Assembly: GCA_002841945.1 (NCBI GenBank)
Contig: PHBI01000047.1
Location: 5,421 to 69,420, forward strand
Direction of reading: 5' to 3'
Origin: Deltaproteobacteria bacterium HGW-Deltaproteobacteria-14
Lineage (GTDB): Bacteria; Myxococcota_A; UBA9042; PHBI01
DNA length: 64,000 nt
Within the stretch, counting starts at the first letter, position 1; each line of letters starts with the position of its first letter. The notes under the pieces were generated by a model that was given only the letters and a program-made list of their open reading frames with translations, had not been told where the DNA came from and ran no database searches. Below are positions 3,341 through 32,968 of this stretch, piece by piece. The translations under genes were made by a program, and so were the position numbers.

Positions 3341-3404
3341 TGGGAACTGGGTCCGGCTTCGGCAAAAAATCACGAGCTCTGAGGGGTCGCTTCAAATCGT
3401 GACC

Positions 3405-3465: not shown

Positions 3466-3504
3466 GCGCTCTCGCGGCCGCCCGTCGCCACCGTCGAGGC
3501 CCCC

Positions 3505-12116: not shown

Positions 12117-12214
12117 CGCGTGTTCAGTACGCTCGCTGGGCCCACATCGTCGCTATGGTCGAGCGTCGGCCCGGTTGACGGGTTCTACACGCCGACGGAA
12201 GCTGCCGTGTCGCG

Positions 12215-15200: not shown

Positions 15201-15457
15201 TGGCGCCGCTCCCGTTCGCGCCCGAGACCTCGGACGCTTGGCTGTGGGCGCGGCGCGGGAACAAGGGACCCGAGGCCTGCCGCTTCGAGGCGAAGAAGGC
15301 CTGGGTCACGTACTTCAGCAAGCGCGGCGAGGACGCCTCGCCCTCGGCGGCCCGCGTCTGGGGGGAGGAGCTGCTCTTCGAACACCCGGACTTCCCCGAG
15401 GTGTCGGCGGCGGTGCTCGAGCCGCTGCACGCCGCGAAGTCGAAGGTGCCGCTGTGA
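12215..15457 (+). CDS. recC: Exodeoxyribonuclease V gamma subunit RecC
   Basis: 1080 aa. N-terminus MTKHLHIHRSNRVEELVAAL is RecC-like. Followed by recB and recD with overlapping starts. Contains an AT-rich codon patch at 13160-13245. Confidence 0.85.
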   Translation: MTKHLHIHRSNRVEELVAALAAMPPALGDPFATERIAVQSRGIEAWLTMRLAEHRGIAANLEFTSPDRLVAAAVAGALGDRADATDAWAPGRLRWRVLAALPEHLDHPALGTLRRYLEQRDGAPPERRRVTLATRVAEVFHRYTIYRPDVVAAWERGEDDGTWQPLLWRALAAGVPTRHLGHRLAAFVAAVDADGEGALTGVTGRVVVFGVNTLPPRYVEALGAIARHREVHLFLPCASAAGREQDRLVAAGENPRFRNPLLASFDRLGSDLQRLLDGLGGRPRYHDRFVAPGAETALAALQEDVLLLRDRGAPSAHPEKDKRPEPLVMDGEDRSVQVHVCHGAMRQVEVLRDTLLGLFAGDASLEPRDVVVLTPDIDTFAPLIHAVFADGDSPEGERGFPALHQVHDLSLQRANPWAEAFLELLDLATGRLKASTVFAFLALPPVLDTIGIGADELAKARTWLAQAGARWGRDAADRARHGQPEDPLHTWRFAFERLLLGHALANDGFQRFAGVSPYDDIEGKDALIAGQVIDYLERLFDTLDTLREPRTLSAWRDRCAALVADLLVHDDDSAGRAKAILDVLNDLVAGAADAGYDDPVEVEALRALLDAPFNARRTAVTFLSGGMTFCTMVPMRSLPFRVVCLLGMDDSSFPRGGAGLGFDRTRIDEARVGDRDDRADDRQAFLETLLSARDHLVVTYSGRSLGDNQQTPPCVPLAELLAVLERGFRGAWRTEHPLSPFSPANFGVGADGASREALSFDRRFLAGARRLRGPRVSPAPFCDGTPVPAPAAGVVQLTALVAFFKDPTAAFLKQRLDVSLDERDDEIADQAPLAMDGLGRWALGRDLVRWRLRGASDEEARAAVLADGRLPSGALARARLDEVDPKARRIARRVAGLRMGARRVVPIAVELDGVELRGRVDDVFDRGRVAFHPTSARVKHLLDVWIHHLALGAVDALPDQSHLVASNGVFSFARISPERARDLLGRLVALYRRGMMAPLPFAPETSDAWLWARRGNKGPEACRFEAKKAWVTYFSKRGEDASPSAARVWGEELLFEHPDFPEVSAAVLEPLHAAKSKVPL

Positions 15458-18400
15458 GCGCCACCCGTGAGAGCGGGAGCCCGAGCTCCCGCCCCTTCGA
15501 CCCGCTCGGCCCCCTCGCGACCGGGGGCGTGCTGCTCGAGGCGAGCGCCGGGACCGGCAAGACGTGGAGCATCACGAGCCTCGTCCTGCGGCTCGTCGTC
15601 GAGGAGGACGTGCGCATCGAGAACGTCCTCGCGGTGACCTTCACCAACGCGGCGACCGCGGAGCTGCGGGCGCGCGTCTGGGACCGGCTCGACGAGGCGC
15701 TGCGGACGGTCGAGAGCTACTGGCGAGAGGATCCGAAGCCGGCGCCGGACGACGTGATCGGGCGGCTCGTCACGCTGGCGACCGGGGGGCTCGGCTTCGC
15801 CATCGTGCTCGGCCGCCTGCGCGCGGCGCTCGAGGGCTTCGACCGCGCGCAGATCTGGACGATCCACGGCTTCTGCCAGCGGATGCTGCAGCAGAACGCG
15901 CTCGCGAGCGGGGTCGCCTTCGACACCACCCTGGTCGAGGACGAGCGTGCGCTGGTCCGAGAGGTCGTCGAGGACTTCTGGCAGCGGGAGCTCTACGCGG
16001 CGACGCCGGCGACGCTGGCGCTGCTGACCGGCGTGGGCCTCGACCTCGACCGCGCGGTGAGCCTCGGCGACCTCGCGATCCGCCACCCCGACGCCGAGGT
16101 CGTGCCGGCCGAACCCGAGGCGCTGCCCCCCCCGGCGATGCCGAAGACGACGGCGGCGCGCGCCGCCCTCGAGCGGTTCTGGTGGAAGGACCGTCGCCGG
16201 GCGGTCGCCATCATCAAACAGGCGGCCGAGCAGGGCCTCTTGCACCGCCGCTTCCCCGTGGCCGAGCTCGACGGCGTCATGGACGTGGGCGACGCCGTCG
16301 TCCGCGGGGCGCTGGACCGGACGAGCTTCTTCAAGCTCCGCGTCCTCGACGGCGCGCGCCTCGCGAAGTCCATGGCCTCTGGCGGCGCCCCCCTCCGACA
16401 CCCGCTGTTCGACCTCGTGAGCGCCCTGCGCGCCGCCTGGATCGAGGAGATGCCGACGGCGGCCGACTACCTGCTGTCCTTTCGCTACCGCCTCATCGCG
16501 GAGGTGCGGGCGGCCGTCCGCCGGCGGCGCGAGGCCAGCGCCCAACGCTCCTTCGACGATCTCCTGCGGCTCTTGCGCGAGGCCCTCGAGGCGCCTGGCA
16601 CCGGCGCCGAGCTGGCCGCCTCCATCCGCAAGCAGTTCCGCGCGGTGCTCATCGACGAGTTCCAGGACACCGATCCGGTCCAGTGGGCGATCTTCGATGG
16701 CCTCTTCGTCGCACAGCCGCGGCACTGGCTCTACCTGATCGGGGATCCCAAGCAGGCGATCTATCGCTTTCGCGGCGCCGACATCGACACCTACCTCGCC
16801 GCCAAACGCGCCCTCGGCGGCCGCATCGAGACCCTCGCGCGGAGCTATCGAAGCGACGCGCGCCTCGTCCAGGCCCAGAACGTGCTGTTCGACACCGGCC
16901 CGGCCGCCTTCGCGACCCGGGGCATCGACTACGAGCGGGTCGCCGCCCAGCACGCTGACCGCGCCGAGGGGATCGGCGCCCCTCTGAGGCTCCTCTTTGT
17001 GCGTCGCAACAGGCACCGAGAGATCGACGCCAAGTGGCGCGACAACGAGCTCCCACGGCGGGTCGCCGCGGACATCGCTTCGCTCTTGCACAAGGGCGGG
17101 ACGCTGCGCGCGAAGGCGAGCGACGAGCCGCGCCCGGTGCGCCCGCGGGACTGCGCGGTGCTGGTGCGCACCAACCGCCAGGCGACGGCGATCCAGGACG
17201 CGCTCCGCGACGTCGGCGTCCCGAGCGTGCTCCACGGACCCGACAGCGTGTTCGGGACCGTGGAGGCGCAGGAGCTCGAGCGGCTGCTCGCGGCGATCCT
17301 CGAGCCCGCCCGCACCCGGCTCGCGCGGACGGCGCTGGCGACCGGGCTCCTCGGCGGGACCGCCGTGACGATCGCGGAGGCGGCGGCGGATCCCCAGCGC
17401 TGGGAGGCGTGGGTCGGCGAGCTCCGCGGGTGGCTGCGAGGGTGGCAGGAGCGTGGGGTCGTGCATCTGCTGCGGACCCTGGTCGCGGGCCGCCTCTCGG
17501 GGGTGCTCGCCCGGGTCGATGGCGAGCGCTGCATGGCGAACCTGCTGCACCTGACCGAGCTGCTCCACAACGCGGAGGTCGGCCTCGGGCTCGACCCGGC
17601 CGGGGTCCTCGAGTGGCTCCGGCGGGCGCGGCGAGACGCTGACGATGATGACGCGAGCGCGGCGCTGCGGCTCGAGAGCGACGCCGAGGCGGTCGAGATC
17701 GTCACCATCCACAAGAGCAAGGGGCTCGAGTACCCGCTGGTGTGGTGTCCATATCTGGGGTTGCCGGACAGCGGGCGCACACCACCGGCCTATCTCCACT
17801 TCCGCGACCCCGGGGATGACCACGGCGAGAAGCTCGACGTGGCCCCGGAGCGCCGCGAGTGGGCAGGTCACCAGCAGCTGGTGAGCTACGAGCTCGCCGC
17901 TGAGGGCCTGCGGCTCCTCTACGTCGCGCTGACCCGCGCCAAGCATCAGGTGACGGTCTGGTGGGGGGGCTTTCGGGACGCCCATCGCTCGCCGCTCTGG
18001 TACGCGCTCCACCGGGGCGCCGCGGAGGTCTTTGACGCGGAGGCGCTCGAGCGGTTTCGTGAGCGCACGGTCCGCGACGTCACCGATGACCAGCTGCTCG
18101 CCGAGCTGAGCACCCTCGCGACCCGCTCCGAGCACACGATCGCGGTGGTCGAGGACCTCCCGCGCGAGGTGCCTCGATACGAGGTGATCGCGCACAGCGA
18201 CGTGACCCTCGCGCCCCTCCGCTACGACCGGGCGACCCCGATCGAGAACGGGTGGCGCCGGACGAGCTTCACCGGGCTGACGCGCCACGTCGACTACCAC
18301 GTCGAGACGGCCCAGGCGGCCGAGGACGAGACGGCGCTCGAGGTCGACGAGGGCTCGAGCTCGCTCGCGGAGCTGGCGGTGACGCCGGTGACCTCGGTCC

Positions 18401-19296
18401 CCCTCGCGGACCTCCCGGGCGGGCGCGGGACCGGCAACTTCCTCCACGAGGTGCTCGAGCACGTGGACTTCCAGGGCAGCGCGGAGGCCCTGCGCGCGCT
18501 CGTGGTCGAGCGCCTCCCACGGCACGGCATCGACGAGGGGTGGGCGGAGCTGGTGACCGTCGGGCTCGGCGCCGCGCTGGGAACCCCGCTCCACGCCGGC
18601 GAGGGCGCCCCGTGCCTGGCCGATCTGCCGACCTCGCGGCGGCTCAACGAGCTCGGCTTCACCTTCCCCCTCGCCCACGGGGGGGGGACTGGAGCCGGGC
18701 GCGCGAGGCCGCGGCCGCTGTCGCCGGAGCGCCTCGCGGAGGTCTTCGCGCGCCACCCGGAGCCCGGGGTGCCGCGGGGCTGGATCGAGCGCCTCCGGGC
18801 GCTGTCGTTCCTACCGGCCCGGGGCTTCGTGACCGGCGCCATCGATCTCGTCTTCGAGGGTGAGGACGGTCGCTTCTACGTCGTCGACTACAAGTCGAAC
18901 CACCTCGGCGCGCGCCCGGCGGACTACGACACGGTGGGGATGGAGCGCGCGATGGCCGCGCACCACTACTTCCTCCAGTACCACCTCTACACGGTCGCGG
19001 CGGTGCGGTACCTGCGCACGCGGATCCCGGACTTCGCCTACGAGCGCCACTTCGGGGGCGTCTACTACCTGTTTCTGCGCGGCATGGCGCCGGGCCACCC
19101 GGCGGGCACCGGGGTGTTCGCCGCGACCCCGCCCGAGTCGCTGATCGCCGACCTGTCGGACGCCCTCGATGGACTCGTATCGGTCGCGGACCTACGTCCT
19201 CCGCGGCCGAGCGGCGCGGCCACGGTGGCTCCCACCGGGTCGCCAGGTACGGACTCCGGTCCACGACCCGCCGTGCCCGGGGGGGGCGAGCGATGA
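15454..19296 (+). CDS. recB: Exodeoxyribonuclease V beta subunit RecB (UvrD-type helicase + PD-(D/E)xK nuclease)
   Basis: GTG 15454 overlaps the recC stop (GTGA). Walker A LLEASAGTGKTW. C-terminal nuclease motif IDLVFEGEDGRFYVVDYKSN. The last ~35 aa are encoded by the dispersed repeat. Confidence 0.9.
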   Translation: MSATRESGSPSSRPFDPLGPLATGGVLLEASAGTGKTWSITSLVLRLVVEEDVRIENVLAVTFTNAATAELRARVWDRLDEALRTVESYWREDPKPAPDDVIGRLVTLATGGLGFAIVLGRLRAALEGFDRAQIWTIHGFCQRMLQQNALASGVAFDTTLVEDERALVREVVEDFWQRELYAATPATLALLTGVGLDLDRAVSLGDLAIRHPDAEVVPAEPEALPPPAMPKTTAARAALERFWWKDRRRAVAIIKQAAEQGLLHRRFPVAELDGVMDVGDAVVRGALDRTSFFKLRVLDGARLAKSMASGGAPLRHPLFDLVSALRAAWIEEMPTAADYLLSFRYRLIAEVRAAVRRRREASAQRSFDDLLRLLREALEAPGTGAELAASIRKQFRAVLIDEFQDTDPVQWAIFDGLFVAQPRHWLYLIGDPKQAIYRFRGADIDTYLAAKRALGGRIETLARSYRSDARLVQAQNVLFDTGPAAFATRGIDYERVAAQHADRAEGIGAPLRLLFVRRNRHREIDAKWRDNELPRRVAADIASLLHKGGTLRAKASDEPRPVRPRDCAVLVRTNRQATAIQDALRDVGVPSVLHGPDSVFGTVEAQELERLLAAILEPARTRLARTALATGLLGGTAVTIAEAAADPQRWEAWVGELRGWLRGWQERGVVHLLRTLVAGRLSGVLARVDGERCMANLLHLTELLHNAEVGLGLDPAGVLEWLRRARRDADDDDASAALRLESDAEAVEIVTIHKSKGLEYPLVWCPYLGLPDSGRTPPAYLHFRDPGDDHGEKLDVAPERREWAGHQQLVSYELAAEGLRLLYVALTRAKHQVTVWWGGFRDAHRSPLWYALHRGAAEVFDAEALERFRERTVRDVTDDQLLAELSTLATRSEHTIAVVEDLPREVPRYEVIAHSDVTLAPLRYDRATPIENGWRRTSFTGLTRHVDYHVETAQAAEDETALEVDEGSSSLAELAVTPVTSVPLADLPGGRGTGNFLHEVLEHVDFQGSAEALRALVVERLPRHGIDEGWAELVTVGLGAALGTPLHAGEGAPCLADLPTSRRLNELGFTFPLAHGGGTGAGRARPRPLSPERLAEVFARHPEPGVPRGWIERLRALSFLPARGFVTGAIDLVFEGEDGRFYVVDYKSNHLGARPADYDTVGMERAMAAHHYFLQYHLYTVAAVRYLRTRIPDFAYERHFGGVYYLFLRGMAPGHPAGTGVFAATPPESLIADLSDALDGLVSVADLRPPRPSGAATVAPTGSPGTDSGPRPAVPGGGER
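19171..19275 (+). repeat. Copy A of the ~100-bp dispersed repeat, occupying the 3' end of recB
   Basis: Aligns with 32592-32695 (same strand) and 3241-3340 (inverted). Confidence 0.7.
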
Positions 19297-21083
19297 GCGC
19301 GCTCGACGCCTTCGTGGCGGCGCGGATCCTCGACCCGCTGGCGGTGCAGTTCGCGCGCGCGATGGCGCGGCTCGTCGCCGAGCCCCCGGCGGACGCGGTG
19401 CTGCTCGGGCTGGCCGCGGCCAGCGCGGCGGTCAACCGCGGGCACGTCTGCTGCGCGCTCGCAGACGCCGCGTCGCTCTTGCCGCCGGACGTCGAGGGGG
19501 TCGGGGAGGCCGAGGTCGAGCCCCCCGCCTGGCCGGAGCTCGAGGCGTGGCGTGACGCGCTCGCGGCGAGCCCGCTCGTCGCCCTCGCGAGCGTAGCCGT
19601 GACGTCGTCGGCGCCCCTGGTCCTCGACGGCGAGCGCCTCTACCTCCACCGCTACTGGGAGTACGAGCGACGGCTCGCGGGGGCGCTGGCGAGGAGGGCG
19701 CGCGGCCTGGCCCCGGTGGTCGACGTGGCGCGGCTCGGCGCGGCCCTGGAGCGGCTCTTCCCGAGCCGCGGCGACGAGCCCGATCTGCAGCGCGAGGCTG
19801 CGCGGCGGGCGGTCGAGCGGCGTCTGGCCATCATCACCGGGGGGCCTGGCACCGGGAAGACGTCGACGGTGGTGCGGGTGCTCGCGGCGATCCTCGACCA
19901 GGCGCCCCACGCCCGGATCCAGCTCCTCGCGCCGACCGGCAAGGCGGCGGTGCGGATGAGCGAGGCGGTTCGGGAGGCCAAAGAGGACCGCGAGCGGCTC
20001 GACATCTCGGACGAGGTGCGCGCGCGCATCCCCGAGGAGGCGTCCACCATCCACCGCGCGCTCGGGTATCAGCCCGGCAGCCCCACGCGCTTCTTCCATG
20101 GCGAGGACTACCCGTTGCTCGCCGACGTCGTGGTCGTGGACGAGGCCTCGATGGTCGATCTCTCGCTGATGGCCAAGCTGGTGCTCGCCGTGCGCGAGGA
20201 CGCGCGGCTCGTGCTGCTGGGCGACAAGGACCAGCTCGCGAGTGTCGAGGCGGGCTATGTGCTCGGCGAGCTGTGCAAGAGCGACGTGCTGGCGCCGTGC
20301 CGGGTCGAGCTGCTCAAGAGCCACCGCTTCGACGGCGAGGGGGGGATCGGCTCCCTCGCCCGGGCCATCAACGCCGGAGACGCCGCCCGCACCTTGGAGA
20401 TCCTGCGGGACCCGGGCCAGCCCGAGGTGGTCCTGGTCGAGCCAGCCGCCCTCCTCGGCGACCTCGAAGCGCAGCTCCGGGACCTCGTGCTGCCGCACCT
20501 GCGCGCCCGGGTCCGCGCGTCGCGCTCACCCTCGGAGGCGCTCGCCGCCCTGGGCCGCTTTCAGGTGCTGACCGCGCACCGTCGCGGTCGCTTCGGGGCC
20601 GCGCTGTTGAACCAGGTGGCCGAGCGCTGGCTCGCCGCGTCCGGCGACGTCGTCCCCCACGACGCGGGCTACGCGGGCCAGCCGATCGTGGTGACCGTCA
20701 ACGATCGCGTGCTCCAGCTCTTCAACGGCGACACCGGGGTCGTGCTGCCGGACGCTGAGGGCCGGCTGCGGGCCTACCTCCCCGACACCCGCGACGGCGG
20801 GATCCGGAGCCTGACCCCGGCGCAGCTCCCCCCACACGAGACGTTCTACGCCACGACGGTCCACAAGGGGCAAGGGTCCGGCTATGACGAGGTGGTCGTG
20901 GTGCTGCCCACCGATCCCTCTCCCGTCGTGACCCGCGAGCTCCTCTACACCGCGGTCACTCGCGCGCGCCGAAAGGTGACGCTGGTCGGCACCGAGGCCG
21001 TGATGCGCCACGCGGTAGGGAGCCGCATCCTTCGTGCCTCCGGGCTGGCGGTCGCCCTCGGCCGCGATGGTGCTCTGGGGTGA
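19293..21083 (+). CDS. recD: Exodeoxyribonuclease V alpha subunit RecD
   Basis: ATGA overlap with the recB stop. Walker A ITGGPGTGKTST and Walker B VVVDEASMVD. C-terminus TTVHKGQGSGYDEVVVVLP...TAVTRARRKVTLVG. Confidence 0.9.
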   Translation: MSALDAFVAARILDPLAVQFARAMARLVAEPPADAVLLGLAAASAAVNRGHVCCALADAASLLPPDVEGVGEAEVEPPAWPELEAWRDALAASPLVALASVAVTSSAPLVLDGERLYLHRYWEYERRLAGALARRARGLAPVVDVARLGAALERLFPSRGDEPDLQREAARRAVERRLAIITGGPGTGKTSTVVRVLAAILDQAPHARIQLLAPTGKAAVRMSEAVREAKEDRERLDISDEVRARIPEEASTIHRALGYQPGSPTRFFHGEDYPLLADVVVVDEASMVDLSLMAKLVLAVREDARLVLLGDKDQLASVEAGYVLGELCKSDVLAPCRVELLKSHRFDGEGGIGSLARAINAGDAARTLEILRDPGQPEVVLVEPAALLGDLEAQLRDLVLPHLRARVRASRSPSEALAALGRFQVLTAHRRGRFGAALLNQVAERWLAASGDVVPHDAGYAGQPIVVTVNDRVLQLFNGDTGVVLPDAEGRLRAYLPDTRDGGIRSLTPAQLPPHETFYATTVHKGQGSGYDEVVVVLPTDPSPVVTRELLYTAVTRARRKVTLVGTEAVMRHAVGSRILRASGLAVALGRDGALG

Positions 21084-21372: not shown

Positions 21373-21897
21373 ATGATCTCGATCGGAAAGAAGTCCCCCG
21401 AGTGGAAGGCGACCGCCTACGTCAACGGCGAGCAGCAGACGATCTCGAGCGAGGACTACAAGGGCAAGTGGCACATCCTCTACTGGTACCCGTTGGACTT
21501 CACCTTCGTGTGCCCGACGGAGATCAAGGGCTTTCAGGCGCTGCTGAGCGACTTCGCCGATGACGGCGTGGCGATCATCGGCGCGAGCACCGACTCGTTC
21601 TTCAGCCACCAGGCCTGGTTCGCCGACCGCGAGACGTTCCCGCAGGAGATCACCCACCCGGTGATCGCCGACACGGCCCACGCGGTCTCGAAGGCGTTCG
21701 GCGTCCTCAAGAAGGACGAGGGCATCGCCTACCGCGCGACCGTGATCATCGATCCCGAGGGCGTCGTGCGGAGCGTGGCGGCCAACGACCTCAGCGTGGG
21801 TCGCAACCCGGAGGAGAGCCTCCGCACGGTGCAGGCGCTGCAGAGCGGCGGTCTGTGCGGCGTGAACTGGAAGAAGGGCGAGACCTTCGTCGGCTGA
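21373..21897 (+). CDS. 2-Cys peroxiredoxin (AhpC/Prx1 family)
   Basis: Peroxidatic-Cys motif DFTFVCPTEI and resolving Cys near the C-terminus (GGLCGVNW). 174 aa. Confidence 0.9.
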   Translation: MISIGKKSPEWKATAYVNGEQQTISSEDYKGKWHILYWYPLDFTFVCPTEIKGFQALLSDFADDGVAIIGASTDSFFSHQAWFADRETFPQEITHPVIADTAHAVSKAFGVLKKDEGIAYRATVIIDPEGVVRSVAANDLSVGRNPEESLRTVQALQSGGLCGVNWKKGETFVG

Positions 21898-21959: not shown

Positions 21960-22308
21960 ATGGCTGAGCTGGAGCTGCTGGACGGTGAGACCTGGGAGGC
22001 GTTCACTCGCGAGTGATCTGATCGTCCTGATGCTGGGCAAGACCGACTGCGCCGCGTGCGACGCGCGGACCCAGGAGCTGACCGAGCTGCTCGCGGCGGG
22101 CGGCGCGCGCTTCGCCGGGGTGCGCTTCGGCAAGATCCTGCTCGACCAGCGGGGGCTGGCGTCGTTCAAGCGGGCCTACGGGCCGCTCCTCGCGAGCGCG
22201 ACGGACCTGCCCTACAACATCATCTTCAAGGGCGGCGAGCCGCAGAAGGCCTGGTTCGGCGGCGGCGCGCAGCGCCTCGAGAACCGGCGGGCGCACTTCA
22301 CGGGCTGA
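21960..22308 (+). pseudogene. Thioredoxin-fold protein (CAAC active site) interrupted by an apparent 1-nt insertion that creates an in-frame TGA at 22014
   Basis: A strong RBS (GGTGGAGG) and ATG 21960 give MAELELLDGETWEAFTRE, then a stop. The thioredoxin-like body (DLIVLMLGKTDCAACDAR...IIFKGGEPQ) continues in the +1 frame with high GC3. Deleting t22014 joins the two parts seamlessly. Confidence 0.5.
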
Positions 22309-23350
22309 GGGGGGCGGCGCTCGCGGGGAGGGTGGACTTCACCCCCTCCCGGGTCACGAAGATGGCGTCGACGCCGGGGGTCGCCCGGGCAAACGCCAGG
22401 CCACGCTCCGGCCCCATCACGAACAGCGCGGTCGCGAGGGCGTCGGCCATGGCGGCGTCACGGGTCAGCACCGTGACCGAGCCGTCGAAGTCGGGCGGGC
22501 GACCGGTGCGCGGGTCCAAGATGTGTCCCACGCTCTGGTCGCCGACCGTCCGCCGCCGCAGGTAGTTCCCCGAGGTGGCGACGGCGGCGTCGCGCACCTC
22601 GAAGCGGGTCGCGGTGAGGCGCGGGAGCCAGGGATCGGCGACGCGCACGACCCGGGCCGAGCCGTCGGCCGCCGGTCCCGAGCCGCGGAGGTCACCGCCG
22701 AGGTTGACGACCAGGCTGGCGTAGCCGCGGCGCCGAAGCTCGAGGTAGACCGCGTCGATGATCCAGCCCTTGGCGACGCCTCCGAGCCCGAGGCGCACGT
22801 CGGGCCGCGCGAAGCGGACCCCGGCGGCGTCGACGACGACGTGGCGCCAGCCGACCTGGGCGAGCGTGGCGGCGAGGGCGTCGGCGCTGGGCGGGCGGTC
22901 GGCGTCGGCCGCGCGGTCCCAGAGCGCGCCCAGCGGCAGCCAGGTCGGGTCGAAGGCGCCGTCGGTCGCTCGGGCGACCTCGAGCGCGCCGGTCAGCAGG
23001 CGCCGCAGGGGATCGGACACGGCCACCGTCTCGACCCCGGCCCGCTGGTTGAGGCGGCTCAGCTCGCTGTCGTTTCTCCACTCGGAGAAGACCGCCTCGA
23101 GCCGCTGACACAGCGCGTGGGCCGCGGCGATGTCGGCGCGCGCGCGGGCCTCGTCGCCCGGGCGGGCGAGCACCTCGACGGTCCAGCTGGTGCCGAGCTC
23201 GTGCCCCTCGTCGACGACGGCGACCCAGCTCCCACCGGCGTCCGGGACCGCCGCTCGAGTGGGGGAGGGGGCCGCGGCCGCCGCCGGCGTCGCCCGAACC
23301 GCGAGCAGCGCCGCCCAGACCGCGAGCGCCGCGCTCCGCTGCGCGCTCAC
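22298..23350 (-). CDS. apbE: FAD:protein FMN transferase (ApbE family), secreted
   Basis: GTG 23350 overlaps the stop of the upstream gene. Signal peptide SAQRSAALAVWAALLAVRA. ApbE-like core (GGVAKGWIIDAV...ATSGNY...DPRTG...AMADALATA). Confidence 0.8.
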   Translation of the reverse strand: MSAQRSAALAVWAALLAVRATPAAAAAPSPTRAAVPDAGGSWVAVVDEGHELGTSWTVEVLARPGDEARARADIAAAHALCQRLEAVFSEWRNDSELSRLNQRAGVETVAVSDPLRRLLTGALEVARATDGAFDPTWLPLGALWDRAADADRPPSADALAATLAQVGWRHVVVDAAGVRFARPDVRLGLGGVAKGWIIDAVYLELRRRGYASLVVNLGGDLRGSGPAADGSARVVRVADPWLPRLTATRFEVRDAAVATSGNYLRRRTVGDQSVGHILDPRTGRPPDFDGSVTVLTRDAAMADALATALFVMGPERGLAFARATPGVDAIFVTREGVKSTLPASAAPLSP

Positions 23351-24477
23351 CACACCGCCGACGCGCCGAGATTCGCGCCGACGGCGCTGATCCCGTCCGA
23401 CCGGAAGAAGGCGAACAGCGAGAGCCGGCCGAGCCACGCCCGCGCCAGATCGCCCCGCAGCGGGAACACGAGCATCATCCCGGGGCTGTGCATGGTCCAG
23501 GCGTCGAGGTCGAAGTCCTGGGTCTGGTAGGTCGCGTCCGCGGTCGGCCGCTCGCGAAACCACTTCGCGCGCGACTGGGTGGCGAAGCGATACCAGAAGC
23601 GCCAGCGGCTGGTCGCGCCGAGCGGGATCTCGACGCTCGGCTCGACGGCGCCGGAGACCACCCCCCAGTCGTCGCCGTAGAGCGAGCCGTCGAGCCCGAA
23701 TCCGAGCCCATGGCGCGGCGACCACCGGACGCGGCCGCTCACCTGGACGCGGTCGCGCTCGCGCGGGAGCTGCTCGAAGCCCAGATGCACCGGGGTCCCG
23801 ACGTCGTCGTAGAGCACGACGAAGTTGTAGGCGTCCTGCATGTCTCCGTCCTGGCGGGTGTACTGGACGCTCGCGTTGACCAGCCAGGACGGTGACAGGT
23901 TCTGTGTGAACGACAGGATCAGGTTGTGCGACCGCAGGTAGTCGAACGGCATGATCAGGTCGTCCCAGCGGCGTGGCTTCAGGATCCCGAGCCGAAAGCT
24001 GTAGGTCAGCGCCAGGATCGTGTCGCTGTCGGCGAGATCGAGCTGCCCGGTGAGGTCCGCGCCGAGGGACACGAAGCGCCGCTGGTGGTGGTAGTACAAC
24101 CCCGCGGTGAAGCTCGCCGGGCTTTCCGGCGGCGTGAAGCGGAGCGCCGCCTGCGCGTCGAGGGTCAGCACCTGTGACGACGCCTGGGTCGTCAACACCT
24201 GGTCGACGGTGTCGGGCAGGGGGCGGGTGTTCTCGTTGTCGATGAGGCTGCCGGCGACGTTCAGCGCCATCGCGAGGCTGTCGTCGAACGCGTAGTCGAG
24301 GGCCATGCGCAGCCCACCGTAGCGGAGCCCCTCGGCGCGCAGCGGCTGCCCGCCGTCGTCGTCCTGGGCCAGGGCGAAGATGTCGAGGGTCGCCACGCTC
24401 GACGCCGCGAGCGCGCGTGGAACGAGCCCCGTGAGGGCGACCGCCGCGACCGCCAGCGCGACTACTCGCACCCGCAT
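23347..24477 (-). CDS. DUF3570-family predicted outer-membrane beta-barrel protein
   Basis: Signal peptide MRVRVVALAVAAVALTGLVPRALA. Alternating aromatic/hydrophobic beta-strand pattern. C-terminal aromatic residue (W). Confidence 0.65.
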   Translation of the reverse strand: MRVRVVALAVAAVALTGLVPRALAASSVATLDIFALAQDDDGGQPLRAEGLRYGGLRMALDYAFDDSLAMALNVAGSLIDNENTRPLPDTVDQVLTTQASSQVLTLDAQAALRFTPPESPASFTAGLYYHHQRRFVSLGADLTGQLDLADSDTILALTYSFRLGILKPRRWDDLIMPFDYLRSHNLILSFTQNLSPSWLVNASVQYTRQDGDMQDAYNFVVLYDDVGTPVHLGFEQLPRERDRVQVSGRVRWSPRHGLGFGLDGSLYGDDWGVVSGAVEPSVEIPLGATSRWRFWYRFATQSRAKWFRERPTADATYQTQDFDLDAWTMHSPGMMLVFPLRGDLARAWLGRLSLFAFFRSDGISAVGANLGASAVW

Positions 24478-24686
24478 CCCCCCGCGGCCGACCTCCCGTA
24501 GCCCCCGAAGCCTCCCTCTCGGGCGCCCTCGGCCTTGGCCCGCAGATACTCGACGGTCGCGTCGGGCGCGAAGCCCATGCAGTGGTCGGAGAGCCGGCCG
24601 CGCTCATGGGGGCGGGTCGTGCTGCACCCCGCGACGCCGCAGGTCGCGCTGGCGAGGACGAGGACGAGGACGACGAGGGCGCGCAT
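24462..24686 (-). CDS. DUF4266-family small lipoprotein
   Basis: MRALVVLVLVLASATCGVAGCSTT (lipobox), ~74 aa, C-terminal GGCGCE. Overlaps the DUF3570 gene start by 16 bp. Confidence 0.6.
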   Translation of the reverse strand: MRALVVLVLVLASATCGVAGCSTTRPHERGRLSDHCMGFAPDATVEYLRAKAEGAREGGFGGYGRSAAGGCGCE

Positions 24687-24712
24687 GGGCCGGATCATGC
24701 CCGCCACCGTGG

Positions 24713-25243
24713 CTAGCAGCAAGCACGAGATGAGCGTGACAGCGTGTCCCAGGCCGCCAGGAACGTGAGCTCTGCCTCGAGCGCCGACCACGGCGCGATC
24801 ACCTCGCTGAGCGGCGCGACGGCGATCCCCCAGGTGGAGGCGTCGGTCCCCATCAGGTCGCGCGCCTCGGTCGCGAGCAGCACCGTGTCCGCGTGCTTCA
24901 CCGCGTCGGGCATCGGCCACGCCAGCCCGAAGCGCGCCGCGACGACGCGCATGAAGCGCTCCTCGACGACCTCGTAGTCCGGGAGCCGCCGCTTGAGGGG
25001 CCGCGGGACGTCGGCGAGGTACGCCTCGCTGGCGTCGTGCATCAGCCCCCATAGCGCGTGCTCCGCGGCGCCCGCGCGCGCTACGCGCACCGAGTGCTCC
25101 GCCACCGAGTAGAACGCCCGGCAGTGCCCGTTGAAGCGGCACAGCTGGCTCAGCGCGTGGGCGACGTCCTCGATCACCAGCGCCTCGGGATCGGGGTCGA
25201 GGGGGTCGATTCGCCGGCCGGTGTAGGTCTGGATCCAGCCCAT
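24713..25243 (-). CDS. HD-domain hydrolase (YfbR-like 5'-deoxynucleotidase family)
   Basis: MGWIQTYTGRRIDPL...VAEHSVRVA...GLMHDASEAYLADVP is an HD motif. The upstream extension of ORF 24713..25684 has poor GC3 and overlaps the neighbouring gene. Confidence 0.6.
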   Translation of the reverse strand: MGWIQTYTGRRIDPLDPDPEALVIEDVAHALSQLCRFNGHCRAFYSVAEHSVRVARAGAAEHALWGLMHDASEAYLADVPRPLKRRLPDYEVVEERFMRVVAARFGLAWPMPDAVKHADTVLLATEARDLMGTDASTWGIAVAPLSEVIAPWSALEAELTFLAAWDTLSRSSRACC

Positions 25244-25251
25244 CCTGTCGC

Positions 25252-26388
25252 TCACGGTGTCAGGGTCACGCCCGCCGGGAGGGGCCAGGTGTTGTGTGAC
25301 ACGCGGTCCGTTCCGCAGTGGGTCCCATCCCCGAGGGCCGTGGTCAGCACCAGGCGGCCACGGTCTGGCGCCATCACGACCTGCAGCACGCTCGGAGCGC
25401 TGAAGTCGGCGCACATCCCGTCGTCGCGGTCCTCCTTGCTGCACTTGGCGGTGACGAACGGGACCCGACCGAGCTCGAAGGACGCCTTGTTGTCCGGGGC
25501 GACGAGCCTGAAGGAGGCCACGCCCTTGGCGCCGACGGCGTCGATGAACCAGCCCTCGAGCGGCGCAGCGAGCATCACCGTCGGGGTGTGCGCGCGGATG
25601 CCCGAGGGTTGCTCCGCCGTCGCCGTGATCAGGTCCGCCGCGGGCGCGAACCCGTCGCGGCCGATCTTTGCGACCCACGCCCAAGCCTGGCGCGCCGTCG
25701 GCTCCGCGGCGGCGTCGGGATCGACGAGCACCTTGCCGGCCCCCGCGGCCAGGTCCGTCAGCGAGGCCACGCGCCCCTCGAGCCGGTCCGCGTCGCTGCA
25801 GCTGCCGATCTCGGCGGTCGTCACCAGGGCCACCTGGTCGCCCTTGAAGCCGACCACGCCGAGCAGGCCGATGAACCCGCAGCCGTCCGCGTCGGGGTGG
25901 GTGCCGCAGCGCCCGACCCGGGTGAGAATGCCGCGCTCGCTCTGGTCTACGGGCGCCAGCGCGCTCAGCAGATCCGCCGAGAGCACCCCGGCAGCGGGCA
26001 CCTCGACCCCGTACTCGTTGGTCGTGCGGCCGCCAGCCGCGCTGCCCGTGTCAGCCTCCCCAGCCGGGGCGGCCGCGGCGTCGGTCTCCCCCTCTGGAGC
26101 GGTCGCCACGTCGGCCTCGCCCTCGGGTGCGGTCACCGTATCGGCCACGCCCTCCGGTGCGGTCGGCGTGTCCGCCTCGCCCGCCGGCGCCGCCGCGTCC
26201 GCCGCCGCAGGCCCCTGTGCGAGCGCAACATCAGCGGTCGTGCTTGGGCCTGGTTCAGATTTTATTACAGATGGTTGCGTCGTTGATGGTGGCGGTTGCG
26301 ATGCATCATCCATGGTCGCCTTCTTGCCACCGCACGCCACGATCCCGAGCCCCGCGACGACCGCCATCCACCCGAGCACGCTCCGCAT
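25252..26388 (-). CDS. Hypothetical lipoprotein with TAPEGEAD 24-bp tandem repeats
   Basis: ATG 26388 gives MRSVLGWMAVVAGLGIVACGG (lipobox). Followed by a Pro/Ala/Glu-rich repeat region, then a Cys-containing globular domain. Confidence 0.55.
   Translation of the reverse strand: MRSVLGWMAVVAGLGIVACGGKKATMDDASQPPPSTTQPSVIKSEPGPSTTADVALAQGPAAADAAAPAGEADTPTAPEGVADTVTAPEGEADVATAPEGETDAAAAPAGEADTGSAAGGRTTNEYGVEVPAAGVLSADLLSALAPVDQSERGILTRVGRCGTHPDADGCGFIGLLGVVGFKGDQVALVTTAEIGSCSDADRLEGRVASLTDLAAGAGKVLVDPDAAAEPTARQAWAWVAKIGRDGFAPAADLITATAEQPSGIRAHTPTVMLAAPLEGWFIDAVGAKGVASFRLVAPDNKASFELGRVPFVTAKCSKEDRDDGMCADFSAPSVLQVVMAPDRGRLVLTTALGDGTHCGTDRVSHNTWPLPAGVTLTP
26030..26210 (-). repeat. Imperfect 24-bp tandem repeats encoding T(A/V)PEGEAD within the lipoprotein gene
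   Basis: Peptide repeats TAPEGVADTVTAPEGEADVATAPEGETD and the corresponding DNA periodicity. Confidence 0.5.
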
Positions 26389-27422: not shown

Positions 27423-27574
27423 TCACCGCGCGCCGTGTCCCGTGCGACACGCGGGCGTCCCACGAGGAACACGAGCCGCGCCGGCGCGCGCGAATATTGC
27501 GTTGAAATTAATGGAGTTTCTTGTGTGGCACGGGCCTTGCTTTGGAGGCCTCCGTACCCAACACGGAGGTCTCC

Positions 27575-28768
27575 ATGCTTTCCACCGCAGCGGTCGCCGA
27601 GCCCAGCGCTCCGCGGCCGACTCGTGAACGACGGGGCGCGCGACCCGCCGTGACCCGCCTGACCGTCGCGCTCCTCACCCTCGGCGTCGCGCTCTCGGTC
27701 CCGGCCGTCGCCAGCGCGCGCCCGACGGGCGTGCCCCGCATCGAGGTCGCGTTCGTGCTCGACGCGACCGGCTCGATGAGCCCCTGGATCGAGCAGGCGC
27801 GCCGCCGCATCACCGCCATCGCGACCGACCTCGCCACCGGCGAGCCCGCCCCGGAGGTCCGCTTCGGCCTCGTGGCGTACCGCGACACCTCGGACGACTT
27901 CGTGACCCGCGTCGATGACCTCACGCCGAACCTCGACAGCATCAAGGCCCAGCTCGACGCGACCCACGCGCAGGGGGGCGGCGACTACCCGGAGGCGGTG
28001 CTCGAGGCCCTCGAGGCTGGCGTCGTCCAGCTCCGCTGGACCCTCGACGACCCAGACGTCATCAAGCTCATCTACCTCGTCGGCGACGCGCCGCCCAACC
28101 ACCACCCCGACACCCCCGACGAGGACCGCGTCCTCGCCGAGGCGCTCGACCGCGGCATCGTCATCCACACCATCGCCTGCGGGAACATCAGCGACGGTGG
28201 CGAGGGCTTCTTCGAGCGCGTCGCCCGCATGAGCGAGGGCCGCCCGTTCCGCCTGCGGGACGCCGGCCCGCCCGAGGCGCGCTCCCCCGAGGCCGTCGCC
28301 GTGACCGCCGTCGGCGCCACCCGCACCACCAGCCTCGCCGCCGCAGTCAGCGGCTCTGCGCGCGCCTACTCCGGCAGCGTCGGCGTCGCCTACGCCGCCA
28401 AGCCTCGCCCGACGGTGGCCACCGCGCCCCTCGCCGTCCCGCCCGCCGCCGCGGCCGGCGCGAGCGGCCTCCTCGGCCCCCACGTGCGGGTCGTCCGCGA
28501 CGCCCGGGCCTGGTCCGATCTCTGGCTCGCCTTCACCAGCACCCGCGCCGGTGAGCCCCCCGCCGTCCCCGAGGTCGACTTCGAGCGCACCTGGGTGCTC
28601 GCCATCGGCGGCGGCGACGCCGGCCTCGAGCTCGCCCGGGTCGAGCAGGACGAGGGCGTCCGCTTCGCCGTCGTCCGCCCGACCGCCACGCCGGGCGTGC
28701 GCTTTCTCACCGTCCCCGCGGGCGACCCCATCGTCGCCGCCGCCGACTCCACCGGAGGTGCCAAGTGA
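27575..28768 (+). CDS. Secreted von Willebrand factor A (vWA) domain protein
   Basis: Signal peptide (possibly Tat: RERRGARPAVTRLTVALLTLGVALSVPAVASA). MIDAS motif VAFVLDATGSMS...GGDYPEA...YLVGDAPP. Confidence 0.7.
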   Translation: MLSTAAVAEPSAPRPTRERRGARPAVTRLTVALLTLGVALSVPAVASARPTGVPRIEVAFVLDATGSMSPWIEQARRRITAIATDLATGEPAPEVRFGLVAYRDTSDDFVTRVDDLTPNLDSIKAQLDATHAQGGGDYPEAVLEALEAGVVQLRWTLDDPDVIKLIYLVGDAPPNHHPDTPDEDRVLAEALDRGIVIHTIACGNISDGGEGFFERVARMSEGRPFRLRDAGPPEARSPEAVAVTAVGATRTTSLAAAVSGSARAYSGSVGVAYAAKPRPTVATAPLAVPPAAAAGASGLLGPHVRVVRDARAWSDLWLAFTSTRAGEPPAVPEVDFERTWVLAIGGGDAGLELARVEQDEGVRFAVVRPTATPGVRFLTVPAGDPIVAAADSTGGAK

Positions 28769-31074
28769 CTTCACGCCTGCTCCGCGGCGCGCTCGCCGCC
28801 GCGCTCTGCCTCGTCGCCACCCCGGCCCTGTCGGCCGGCTGGGCCACGGCGCCCGTCGGCCCGCTGCGCACCGCCTACACCCGGGTCGACGCCGTCATCG
28901 ACGGCGACACGGCGCGCACCACCGTCACCCAGGTCTTCGTCAACGACCTCGAGACCCCGGTCGAGGTGACCTACCGCTTCCCGCTGCCCGAGGACGCCAG
29001 CGTCACCGGCTTCGCCGACTGGCGCGACGGCCGCCGCCTCGAGGCGACCGTCGCCGGCAAGGAGGACGCCCGCGACGCCTACGAGGAGGCCGCCGCCGAG
29101 GGTCGCCCCGCCGCGCTGGCCGAGAAGGAGGCCAACGCCCGCTTCGTGATGCGGCTGTCGACGGTGCCCCCCCGGGGCGCCCGCCGGGTCGAGCTCACCT
29201 ACGTCCAGACGCTCTCGGCCCTCGGGGGCGAGCGCACCTGGGTCTTCCCGGCCGAGCGCGCCGGCGACGTCCCGCCGCCGACCGTCCTCGACGTCGACGT
29301 CACCCTCCGCAACGAGTCGCCGATCAAGGCCGTGCAGTCCCTCAACCACGGCGACGCCCGCGTCATCCCGCAGCGGGACGGCTCACGCCACGTGGCGCTG
29401 AGTCGCACCGGCGGCGGCCTCGGCTACGATCTCGTGCTGCGCTGGCGCGTCGAGACCGAGGCCATCGACCTGGCCGCCCGCGCCGTCCGCCCCGACGCCG
29501 ACCAGCCCGGCTACGTCGAGGCGCGCCTCAGCTTCGCGAGCGACCCCTACGACGCCCTGCGCCCGCCCCAGGACGTCGTCATCGTCCTCGACCGCTCGCT
29601 CTCGATGGCCGGCGCGCCCCTCGAGCGCGGCCGCGCCCTGGTCGAGGGGATCCTGGCCGAGCTCGCCCCCGAGGACCGCTTCTCCCTCATCACCTTCAAC
29701 GCCGGCGTGACCCCCATCGTCGGCGACCTCGCGCCGGCCGACGACGCCAACATCGACCTCGCCCAGGCCGGCCTCGACGACGTCCGCGCCGCCGGACGCT
29801 CCGATCTCCAGGCCGCCCTCGACGTCGCCGCCCACGTCCTGCGCGCGAGCAGCGCCGGGACGCTGGTCCTCGTGACCGACGGTCAGCCGACCGCCGGCGC
29901 CGGCTACACCCGCCTGCCGCTCGCCGCGGACCTCGCCGACTGGGTCGACCACCGCGTGGTCGTCGCCCACGCCAGCTACCCGTCGCGTCAGCCGGTCCTC
30001 GAGCAGCTCTTCCCCCAGGTCACCGTGCGCTACGTCCCCGACGGTGACGCCGGCGTCGACGCCATCGAGTCCCTCATCCGCCTCGTCGTCGCCCCGACCA
30101 TCGAGGACCTCTCGGTCGACCTCGACGGCGCCAACGTCTTCGCCCTCGAGGGCAAGGTCCCGGCGCGCCTCGCCGTCGGCGAGTACCTCCGTCTCCTCGC
30201 CCGCGCCGAGTCCGACGTCGTCGTGCGCGTCAGCGGCACGCTCCACGGCCGCCCGGTCCGCCTCGAGCGCGAGGTCGTGCTCCCCGCTGGCCCCGACGCG
30301 CGCGGCGACCGCGGCCTGCCGGTCGAGTGGGCGCGCCTGCGCGTGGCCGGCCTCGAGGCGCGCTTCGACGGCGCGGCCTACGACGAGCAGGAGGCCATCG
30401 AGGCGGAGATCCGGTCGCTCGGCGCCGCCTACCGCCTCGCCACGCGCTTCACGAGCTACGTCCTCACCGACTCCCTCGCCCCCGACCGCATCATGCCTGG
30501 CGACCCCGAGATCCGCGTCCACGCGCCCGCAACGGCGCTCGGCGTCCGCGCCGTCCTGCCGTGGGGCGAGGTCGTCGACTGTCACTGGCAGCAGGACGAG
30601 CAGCTCTGGCTCGGCCGCTTCCTCGTCCCCCGCGGCACTCCGGACGGGATGTACCGGATGCGGGTCTTCGTCGACGGGCAGGAGGGGACCGAGCTCCGCG
30701 GCACGCTCTTCTTCCGCGTCGACTCCGAGCCGCCGGAGTTCGAGCTGCTGATCGAGGGCGACGCGACCGTCGCCATGGCCGACACCCTGCGCGTCATCGC
30801 CCGCCCCAAGGACGGCGTGTACGAGGGCGAGGCGCTGCGGACGGTCGGCGACACCGTCGTCCGCGACAAGGTCGACCTCAAGCGCATCGTCGTGCAGCTC
30901 GGCGACCGCGAGTACCCGCTGACCCAGGTCGGCGACGGCGAGCTGTGGGCCGCCGACGTCCCCGTCGCCGTCGCGGCCGGGCGGCACGTCCTCAAGCTCG
31001 TGGCCGTGGACTACGCGCTCAACAGCACCGAGGCCACCCTCGCCATCGACGTCCACGCGGAGCGCACGCCGTGA
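28765..31074 (+). CDS. Secreted VIT (vault/inter-alpha-trypsin) + vWA domain protein
   Basis: ATGA overlap with the preceding gene. Signal peptide MTSRLLRGALAAALCLVATPALSA. VIT-like N-terminus (VEVTYRFPLPEDASVTGF). vWA motif VVIVLDRSLSMAG...LVTDGQPT. Confidence 0.75.
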   Translation: MTSRLLRGALAAALCLVATPALSAGWATAPVGPLRTAYTRVDAVIDGDTARTTVTQVFVNDLETPVEVTYRFPLPEDASVTGFADWRDGRRLEATVAGKEDARDAYEEAAAEGRPAALAEKEANARFVMRLSTVPPRGARRVELTYVQTLSALGGERTWVFPAERAGDVPPPTVLDVDVTLRNESPIKAVQSLNHGDARVIPQRDGSRHVALSRTGGGLGYDLVLRWRVETEAIDLAARAVRPDADQPGYVEARLSFASDPYDALRPPQDVVIVLDRSLSMAGAPLERGRALVEGILAELAPEDRFSLITFNAGVTPIVGDLAPADDANIDLAQAGLDDVRAAGRSDLQAALDVAAHVLRASSAGTLVLVTDGQPTAGAGYTRLPLAADLADWVDHRVVVAHASYPSRQPVLEQLFPQVTVRYVPDGDAGVDAIESLIRLVVAPTIEDLSVDLDGANVFALEGKVPARLAVGEYLRLLARAESDVVVRVSGTLHGRPVRLEREVVLPAGPDARGDRGLPVEWARLRVAGLEARFDGAAYDEQEAIEAEIRSLGAAYRLATRFTSYVLTDSLAPDRIMPGDPEIRVHAPATALGVRAVLPWGEVVDCHWQQDEQLWLGRFLVPRGTPDGMYRMRVFVDGQEGTELRGTLFFRVDSEPPEFELLIEGDATVAMADTLRVIARPKDGVYEGEALRTVGDTVVRDKVDLKRIVVQLGDREYPLTQVGDGELWAADVPVAVAAGRHVLKLVAVDYALNSTEATLAIDVHAERTP

Positions 31075-32738: not shown

Positions 32739-32968
32739 CGTATCAAGACGACCTCCGCGAGAAGCTGGCCGGCGACATCGACGTGACGACCTGGAGGGAG
32801 CTGCGCCCGCACGCCGCGCGTGGCGGCCAAGGTCGGCCTGTGGGCCGGGAGCGGGGCCCTCACCCGGCCCACCGCCGCGCAGCTCATCGCCTGGGAGCGC
32901 GCCCTCGACAAGCCCTTCGACTGCGTCGTGCTGTCGCCCTACGTCGTCGCGGCCGAGCGCCCGGAGTA
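32735..32968 (+). pseudogene. Small conserved-looking protein (~78 aa) with an apparent 1-nt frameshift near 32815
   Basis: ATG 32735 gives MTYQDDLREKLAGDIDVTTWRELRPHAA with high GC3. GC3 then collapses in this frame and continues in the +1 frame (VAAKVGLWAGSGALTRPTAAQLIAWERALDKPFDCVVLSPYVVAAERPE, stop 32968). Confidence 0.35.

Follow-up and report, generated by a model that had tools for sequence, protein, structure and literature searches.

The locus analyzed here raises the question of whether four neighboring genes, encoding a DUF4266 lipoprotein, a DUF3570 protein, an ApbE flavin transferase and a protein with a thioredoxin fold, form a single functional unit and, if not, which of them belong together and what the ApbE enzyme would modify. 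The genes lie in a stretch of 64,000 nucleotides, which we call the window. Three of them form a tightly packed trio:

24462..24698, minus strand: DUF4266 small lipoprotein, 78 aa (Pfam PF14086), with an alternative ATG start at 24686
23347..24477, minus strand: DUF3570 outer-membrane beta-barrel, 376 aa, which carries a signal peptide and ends in Trp; predicted ApbE substrate
22298..23353, minus strand: ApbE FAD:protein FMN transferase, 350/351 aa, with alternative starts at 23350 or at a GTG at 23353

All three proteins score above the Pfam gathering thresholds. HMM searches support the family assignments that the original prediction had made for DUF4266 (32.9 bits, cut-off 27) and DUF3570 (PF12094, 47.7 bits, cut-off 25), where the latter match is confined to residues 185-324, in the C-terminal part of the protein. 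ApbE matches PF02424 over its full length (positions 1-266 of 266) with 240.6 bits against a cut-off of 25.6, and also matches the NCBIfam ApbE model (E 6.6e-32, 110.7 bits), under that model's 498-bit equivalog cut-off. Its signal peptide is of the Sec type and contains no lipobox, and we therefore predict a periplasmic location for ApbE. L015, a low-coverage long-read contig in which ApbE is fragmented, was not informative. The coordinates also agree with the arrangement proposed previously for the minus-strand trio, in which the DUF4266 and DUF3570 genes overlap by 16 bp, and the DUF3570 and ApbE genes by 4 bp (GTGA); the second overlap becomes 7 bp if ApbE starts at the upstream GTG. All three reading frames are intact, with their coupled overlaps, in the window and in the related loci L001 and L006, and dN/dS is 0.16-0.41 across the three genes (0.16-0.41 for DUF4266, approximately 0.3 for DUF3570 and 0.30-0.35 for ApbE). 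As the DNA is 73% GC, a scan of the locus for promoters and terminators was not informative.

The module itself has already been published and is not new. Clusters of ApbE, DUF3570, DUF4266 and a thioredoxin-like protein were described by Méheust et al. 2021 (eLife 10:e66878, PMC8238504), with 227 clusters that include DsbD and 316 that do not. The earlier statement that the DUF4266-DUF3570-ApbE association recurs was therefore correct. By contrast, the module's substrate, which had been taken to be unknown, is not: experiments with the Chlorobium luteolum pair have shown that ApbE flavinylates the cognate DUF3570 protein at [S/T]GA[S/T] sites (PMC8238504). The present locus resembles the published clusters in combining ApbE, DUF3570 and DUF4266 in one tightly coupled operon, in the secretion signals of its proteins and in the C-terminal CXC of DUF4266. 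However, it differs from them in its candidate flavinylation site and in its lack of a thiol-reducing partner, as described below. We conclude that the locus is probably a reduced, three-gene, non-canonical variant of the system for extracytosolic flavinylation that was published for ApbE, DUF3570 and DUF4266. The main value of our analysis is thus corrective, in that the substrate is known and the neighboring thioredoxin is part of a different system.

According to profile comparisons, the DUF3570 protein belongs to a divergent subfamily that is found mainly in Myxococcota MAGs. This subfamily is set apart by a gap in scores, as approximately 45 representatives have E < 1e-55, and canonical DUF3570 proteins follow only at approximately 1e-18. 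Homology to the canonical proteins, and hence to a family flavinylated in experiments, extends over the full length (hhalign probability 100%, E 1.5e-71). One other protein, P0049 (7223 aa), gave 22 "matches" to profile positions 59-117, but this adhesin-like protein has Thr/Ser-rich repeats, and we rejected the matches as a compositional artefact. The AF2 model of the DUF3570 protein (pLDDT 93.6) is all-beta, with 16 long strands and a loop hairpin, and its Foldseek matches are barrels of the OccK, FadL, BcsC and OmpG types (E 1e-7 to 1e-9). The protein therefore combines a signal peptide (judged by eye), a closed all-beta barrel and a C-terminal aromatic residue, in this case an invariant Trp, as is characteristic of outer-membrane beta-barrels. 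The barrel nature and membrane location of DUF3570 are not discussed in the open-access literature that we searched.

Canonical DUF3570 proteins have two [S/T]GA[S/T] sites. Neither is present in our protein, and the motif does not occur in any of the approximately 45 subfamily representatives. At the first site, the subfamily has an unrelated conserved sequence in its place. At the second, the alignment places a single, altered site:

24178..24192, minus strand: candidate flavinylation site T-T-Q-A-S, residues 96-100, with Ser100 as the predicted FMN acceptor

In the AF2 model, this site sits in loop 82-101, a long connection from strand 3 to strand 4, and T97, Q98 and S100 are invariant across a clade of nine members. 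In the wider subfamily, the acceptor is Ser or Thr in every row of the alignment that covers the site (Ser in at least 90%) and lies within T-[S/Q]-A-S, while the Ala at -1 is kept in most rows. The T-T-Q-A-S site lacks the Asp that canonical sites have at -6 and has one at -8 instead. In another ApbE substrate, approximately 50% of flavinylation remains when G is mutated to A, and changing D to A makes little difference (PMC12052999). The motif D-x-x-[ST]-G-A-[ST], which had been suggested as a means of identifying the substrate, is absent from the DUF3570 protein and from all 34 window proteins, and the shorter [ST]GA[ST], as a sign of alternative ApbE substrates, likewise does not occur in these 34. 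We infer from the conserved site that proteins of this subfamily are probably flavinylated, with Ser100 most likely the FMN acceptor in the protein studied here.

A different explanation is that the DUF3570 subfamily is no longer flavinylated, such that ApbE modifies a substrate elsewhere or traffics flavin, and the barrel is a plain channel or scaffold. This would fit the absence of [S/T]GA[S/T] throughout the subfamily and the replacement of the first site, and it could be added that Gln at the Gly position has no experimental precedent and that the Pfam model covers the C-terminal part only. However, canonical DUF3570 members also use Ser, Ala or Gln at the "G" position, and both T-S-A-S and S-Q-A-S occur among them. 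The persistence of the Ser/Thr acceptor and its preceding Ala is also difficult to reconcile with a lost function, as are the translational coupling of ApbE to DUF3570, the purifying selection on ApbE, the fusion of ApbE to the module's reductase in relatives (see below) and the lack of any other motif-bearing protein in the window. We therefore regard this explanation as rather unlikely. What is new, in any case, is a coherent DUF3570 subfamily that keeps ApbE under selection without the canonical motif, and for this reason it is a useful test case for the sequence specificity of ApbE enzymes. If Ser100 is indeed flavinylated, the T-[S/Q]-A-S site would widen the range of sequences that these enzymes accept.

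The second departure from the published clusters is that the window contains neither a periplasmic thioredoxin-like gene nor DsbD. A thioredoxin-like protein (PF13899) is present in 183 of 285 DsbD clusters (PMC8238504), so it is a typical component but not an obligatory one. Among relatives of our locus, the module's true thioredoxin-like partner is a TlpA/ResA-like protein with a signal peptide. Its gene is located inside the operon, between DUF3570 and ApbE, in L003 and L011, and its domain is fused to ApbE in L013 and L014. It should be noted that our search of GTDB representatives with the 9-sequence alignment yielded three loci, making for a small census of operon architectures, and that five subfamily loci were inspected outside the clade. 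In the 64-kb window, tblastn with the L003 protein finds no TlpA-like gene, and DUF3570 and ApbE overlap directly. Neither DsbD nor TlpA is matched among the 26 window ORFs that we scanned with Pfam, which are not an exhaustive set, or among precomputed Pfam calls for approximately 20 kb (about 8-10 kb on either side of the gene). These comparisons indicate that the periplasmic TlpA/ResA-like reductase has been lost from the module in this clade. With no DsbD found in the window, the source of electrons must be encoded at some other place in the genome. It is also new that one clade of the subfamily lacks a reductase that its relatives even fuse to ApbE; thiol input is therefore not strictly required in cis. 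We also considered an upstream 371-aa Cys-rich lipoprotein as a replacement redox partner, but rejected it because it is absent from L001.

Two genes on the opposite strand remain to be assigned:

21373..21897, plus strand: 174-aa typical 2-Cys (AhpC/Prx1-type) peroxiredoxin, Pfam AhpC-TSA 123.4 bits
21960..22308, plus strand: thioredoxin-fold gene (CAAC), cytoplasmic, with a frameshift caused by one inserted nucleotide at 22005

The AhpC-TSA score bears out the peroxiredoxin that had been proposed to flank the module. Against TIGR03137, the AhpC equivalog model, this protein scores 156.5 bits, below the cut-off of 272, and on these scores it is an AhpC-TSA family member and not an AhpC equivalog. 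As for the thioredoxin-fold gene, an AF2 model of an intact orthologue has a pLDDT of 96.1, and the top 50 PDB matches that Foldseek shows for it are almost all thioredoxins or derived designs and fusions (TM 0.62-0.77), the best of them being classical thioredoxins throughout (TM 0.7-0.77). C30, C33 and L83-P84 are invariant in the family, which fits a cis-Pro loop and a CxxC at the start of helix 2. In all five distant genomes sampled, the gene immediately upstream of a member of this family encodes a 174-aa AhpC-type peroxiredoxin, and none of these five loci has ApbE or DUF3570 nearby. The peroxiredoxin in the window is 72-75% identical to those that precede the thioredoxin-fold gene in L007, L008 and L009. 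This conserved neighborhood assigns the CAAC thioredoxin to the adjacent peroxiredoxin, separately from the ApbE module, as part of an AhpC-linked, Pfam-less thioredoxin family that is widespread and unnamed.

Systems in which a typical 2-Cys peroxiredoxin is served by a dedicated thioredoxin-type reductant are familiar, e.g., AhpC/Trx1 of Helicobacter. The neighboring pair resembles them in that its first gene encodes an AhpC-TSA peroxiredoxin, which contains FVCPTE and a resolving Cys near the C-terminus, and its second gene a thioredoxin-fold protein with CxxC, and in that the two genes form a conserved unit. It differs in that the thioredoxin-fold protein has no Pfam or NCBIfam match, has C-x-A-C rather than CGPC, and is encoded by a pseudogene in the window. 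We propose that the CAAC thioredoxin would reduce the adjacent 2-Cys peroxiredoxin in the cytoplasm, and that the copy in the window was probably inactivated recently.

The frameshift might instead be an assembly or sequencing error, with the gene being intact in the organism. The source is a metagenome-assembled genome, and once the frame is corrected, dN/dS relative to L001 is 0.25, with no other signs of long-term decay; in addition, a GTG at 21985 could give a truncated product of 107 aa. However, the extra A at 22005, which is apparent from a DNA alignment with the intact 115-aa orthologue in L001, is also present in two other assemblies (L004 and L005), so that three assemblies, one of them a MEGAHIT-style re-assembly, carry the identical insertion. 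Position 22005 is outside any homopolymer, and a nearly invariant Trp has been replaced (W36R). The gene is, moreover, entirely absent from L006, a 95%-identical sister contig in which the module is intact. An error thus seems improbable to us, and we prefer the explanation that the gene is a recent pseudogene.

It could also be supposed that the module itself is decaying after the loss of the TlpA-like protein and is functionally dead in this clade. The lost in-operon gene and the decay of the neighboring thioredoxin-fold gene are compatible with this scenario, but it is very improbable in view of the three intact reading frames, their coupled overlaps in three loci and their dN/dS values. 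Least tenable of all is the original prediction that the convergent CAAC gene is a fourth component of a DUF4266/DUF3570/ApbE/thioredoxin module: its frameshift and thioredoxin fold with CxxC were correctly recognized, the published module includes a thioredoxin-like protein, and the gene does adjoin ApbE, with 3' ends overlapping by 11 bp and the same adjacency in L001, but its product lacks a signal peptide although the module works outside the cytoplasm, has no Pfam match even at E <= 10 whereas genuine partners match PF13899 or Redoxin/AhpC-TSA, belongs to a family that follows peroxiredoxins instead, differs from the secreted TlpA-like protein that relatives encode inside the operon or fuse to ApbE, and is frameshifted or deleted where the module is intact.

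Drawing on what the genes encode and how they are arranged, and on the fold models, the state of the motif and the neighborhoods presented above, we propose a mechanism for the three-gene system. ApbE would be exported by Sec to the periplasm and would use FAD to link FMN covalently to a Ser of DUF3570, by analogy with the Chlorobium luteolum pair. The DUF3570 protein would then be assembled as an outer-membrane beta-barrel of approximately 16 strands, with Ser100, on its long conserved loop, as the putative acceptor. Beta-barrels of this kind have a standard topology in which the N-terminus is in the periplasm. If this applies here, the face that the acceptor loop shares with the remaining long conserved loops would be lumenal or extracellular, and the flavin would accordingly sit in or on the barrel.

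The DUF4266 lipoprotein might provide the remaining step. Its sequence, read directly, contains a lipobox, VAGC, followed by STTR. Further on, it has an internal Cys within DHCM, and it ends in GGCGCE, which includes the CXC; this pattern of cysteines is kept in the L001 and L003 orthologues. Given its outer-membrane-type Ser at +2, the conservation of its internal Cys and its terminal C-G-C, DUF4266 is a likely periplasm-side redox partner of the barrel, where the basis for pairing the two is their operon linkage. Together, DUF3570, DUF4266 and ApbE would constitute an electron relay of thiols and flavin located at the outer membrane.

The confident barrel model, with its acceptor loop on the predicted non-periplasmic face, is likewise new and suggests that a flavin might carry electrons across the outer membrane. 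DUF3570 barrels, the single-site variant described here among them, with covalent FMN on a conserved loop folded into the barrel, could then constitute, together with DUF4266, a flavin-based trans-outer-membrane conduit, or "porin-flavoprotein", but this suggestion is speculative and we consider it doubtful. The likeness to the MtrAB and PioAB porin-cytochrome conduits is by analogy alone: each would comprise an outer-membrane barrel, a redox cofactor and a periplasm-side partner. There is no relationship specific to sequence or fold, the strands number approximately 16 rather than 26, and the cofactor would be a covalent FMN on the barrel's own loop instead of a threaded haem protein.

Finally, the gene on the other side of the module had been proposed to encode an HD hydrolase:

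24713..25243, minus strand: HD-like cytoplasmic protein, 176 aa, separated by 14 bp from DUF4266, which is downstream on this strand

An H..HD..D pattern is visible on inspection, whereas the Pfam match is sub-threshold (YfbR-like, E 0.016). The orthologues detected by tblastn, in L001, L006 and L010, are confined to the close clade, and the same search gives none in L011 or L003. The flanking genes had been taken to suggest a redox context, but their synteny with the module is limited to close relatives and does not amount to a conserved association. Within this clade, the HD-like gene may be co-transcribed with DUF4266.

At the DUF4266-DUF3570-ApbE locus, a known flavinylation system is present in a reduced form with divergent motifs. 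The original prediction described three packed minus-strand genes with overlaps of 16 bp (DUF4266/DUF3570) and 4 bp (DUF3570/ApbE), and this observation is confirmed by the coordinates of the open reading frames; the interpretation attached to it is partly supported. The second overlap reads GTGA and grows to 7 bp with an upstream GTG start. The genes concerned are:

24462-24698, minus: DUF4266 lipoprotein, 78 aa, second ATG at 24686 (Pfam, 32.9 bits)
23347-24477, minus: DUF3570 protein, 376 aa (Pfam, 47.7 bits)
22298-23350 or 23353, minus: ApbE, 350 or 351 aa (Pfam, 240.6 bits)
21960-22308, plus: CAAC thioredoxin-fold gene, convergent with ApbE
21373-21897, plus: peroxiredoxin, forming a pair with the thioredoxin-fold gene

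All three module proteins exceed the Pfam gathering thresholds, so the proposed DUF4266 and DUF3570 assignments hold. The Pfam match of DUF3570 is confined to residues 185-324; in a profile-profile comparison, its subfamily aligns with canonical DUF3570 over the full length (probability 100%, E 1.5e-71). The three genes are under purifying selection (dN/dS 0.16-0.41), and the GC content of the window is 73%. Its DUF3570 protein has a 100% identical counterpart in the MAG Deltaproteobacteria bacterium HGW-Deltaproteobacteria-14, and close relatives are Myxococcota/Deltaproteobacteria MAGs.

In a survey of the neighbourhoods of "orphan" apbE genes, Méheust et al. (2021) reported gene clusters in which ApbE and DUF3570 occur together with DUF4266 and a thioredoxin-like protein (PF13899), 227 of them with DsbD and 316 without, and remarked on a C-terminal CXC in DUF4266 (PMC8238504). 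In Chlorobium luteolum, co-expression and Ser-to-Ala mutants showed that the cognate ApbE attaches flavin to DUF3570 at two [S/T]GA[S/T] sites (PMC8238504). Therefore, the recurrent association described in the original prediction is real, and its statement that the substrate is unknown is out of date.

The DUF3570 of the window belongs to a divergent subfamily. An exhaustive profile search recovers about 45 representatives at E < 1e-55, and canonical DUF3570s follow only at about 1e-18. (A 7223-aa Thr/Ser-rich repeat protein of the representative library, P0049, gave 22 partial matches at profile positions 59-117, which we rejected as a compositional artefact of adhesin-like repeats.) No subfamily representative contains [S/T]GA[S/T]. 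Canonical DUF3570s have D-x-v-[ST]-[SAG]-A-S at site 1, a position occupied in the subfamily by another, conserved sequence, and [ST]-[GS]-A-[ST] at site 2. For most of the subfamily, site 2 is T-S-A-S; the window clade has T-T-Q-A-S instead. The acceptor position of site 2 is Ser or Thr in all subfamily rows that span it, and a few canonical members have S-Q-A-S there. In a 2025 review, the flavinylation motif is D-x-x-[S/T]-G-A-[S/T]; replacing its Gly by Ala is reported to halve flavinylation, and replacing its Asp by Ala to make little difference (PMC12052999). The proposed motif search did not identify a substrate: the canonical motif is found neither in DUF3570 nor in any of 34 window proteins.

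The AF2 model of DUF3570 (pLDDT 93.6) shows an all-beta barrel built from 16 long strands, one of its loops containing a short hairpin; in the PDB it matches outer-membrane barrels of a generic kind (OccK, FadL, BcsC, OmpG). A signal peptide is recognisable by eye, and the C-terminal Trp is invariant; we found no discussion of DUF3570 as a barrel in the searchable literature. In the model, T-T-Q-A-S sits in a 20-residue loop that joins strands 3 and 4. Outer-membrane barrels usually have a periplasmic N-terminus. Given this topology, the T-T-Q-A-S loop and the long conserved loops 41-50, 167-178, 211-239 and 302-326 would lie on the non-periplasmic face. The high conservation of the long loops suggests that they pack into the barrel lumen.

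It might seem that the adjacent CAAC gene supplies the module's thioredoxin, as the original prediction had it. However, the CAAC protein lacks a signal peptide, and its gene goes with the peroxiredoxin rather than with the ApbE module. The widespread family (about 115 aa, C-x-A-C, conserved signature LMLGKSDCxAC...LP) comprises at least 184 clusters at 90% identity and has no Pfam or NCBIfam model. Five distant genomes, drawn from Planctomycetota, Myxococcota, Binatia and others, were sampled for it (L007, L008, L009, L016 and L017; around 3350-5370). In all five, the gene immediately follows one for a 174-aa 2-Cys AhpC-TSA peroxiredoxin (72-75% identical to that of the window in L007, L008 and L009) in the same direction, with spacing from a 4-bp overlap to a 123-bp gap (<=4 bp in four), and neither ApbE nor DUF3570 is nearby. 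The family is probably a dedicated peroxiredoxin reductant, and the pair beside the module is unrelated to it. In two of these loci (L009, 5353-6669; L016, 4359-5675), a 438-aa FAD-dependent oxidoreductase with FAD_binding_3/Trp_halogenase-like matches follows the pair in the same direction; it could act as the reductase that recycles the thioredoxin-fold protein.

Because the CAAC protein lacks a Pfam match even at E <= 10, its fold is not demonstrable from sequence. The predicted thioredoxin fold is nevertheless borne out by the AF2 model of the intact family (pLDDT 96.1), for which every one of the top matches in the PDB is a classical thioredoxin (TM 0.7-0.77). The suspected frameshift is also real: compared with the intact 115-aa orthologue of L001, a 74%-identical relative, a single A is inserted at 22005 of the window, and two further assemblies share the identical frameshift. 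The window protein also carries Arg at a nearly invariant Trp (W36R). The 3' ends of the CAAC and ApbE genes overlap by 11 bp (22298-22308), with no space between them for a terminator; their L001 counterparts are 106 bp apart. In L006, a locus whose DUF3570 is 95% identical, the gene is entirely missing and the ApbE and AhpC stops are 20 bp apart. The window copy is a decaying pseudogene, and its corrected dN/dS of 0.25 against L001 indicates that inactivation was recent.

The module's own thioredoxin is instead a TlpA/ResA-like secreted protein, carried by subfamily relatives outside the window clade in two arrangements. In L003/L012 (50% identity) and L011 (65% identity), its gene separates DUF3570 from ApbE; in two other relatives, its domain is fused to the ApbE N-terminus directly downstream of DUF4266-DUF3570:

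L013, 7146-8543: TlpA/ResA-like redoxin-ApbE fusion, 465 aa
L014, 7119-8495: TlpA/ResA-like redoxin-ApbE fusion, 458 aa

These natural fusions are a Rosetta-stone link between a thiol reductase and the flavin transferase. The TlpA/ResA-like gene is missing from the module in the window, L001 and L006, no homologue occurs across the whole 64-kb window, and DsbD was not found among the window ORFs scanned. The window clade has lost the module's own thioredoxin.

From the published system and sequence features, we infer as the most likely mechanism that periplasmic ApbE would flavinylate Ser100 of DUF3570 ahead of barrel assembly. Carrying its FMN, the barrel would then join the CXC lipoprotein DUF4266 in a thiol/flavin relay at the outer membrane, fed by the TlpA-like reductase in relatives and by DsbD in many published clusters. 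In the window clade, the input of such a relay is not encoded in cis.

Several flanking genes were also noted. On the strand of DUF4266, 14 bp upstream of that gene, lies the gene for an HD-like 176-aa protein (24713-25243, minus) with an H..HD..D pattern, whose only match is a sub-threshold YfbR-like one. This gene keeps its DUF4266-adjacent position in L001, L006 and L010, and not in more distant relatives. Another 8 bp upstream of it lies a gene for a 371-aa Cys-rich predicted lipoprotein (25252-26367, minus) that has no Pfam or NCBIfam match, contains an Ala/Pro/Glu-rich repeated linker (APEGEAD-like units), and is found in L006 and missing from L001. Upstream of the peroxiredoxin is a RecC-RecB-RecD-type helicase/nuclease operon (12179-21083, plus), a synteny common to L001 and L004. 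The opposite flank of the module has a VWA / VIT-VWA / Reg_prop-like gene trio (27521-32741, plus), which is syntenic in L001, L004 and L006.
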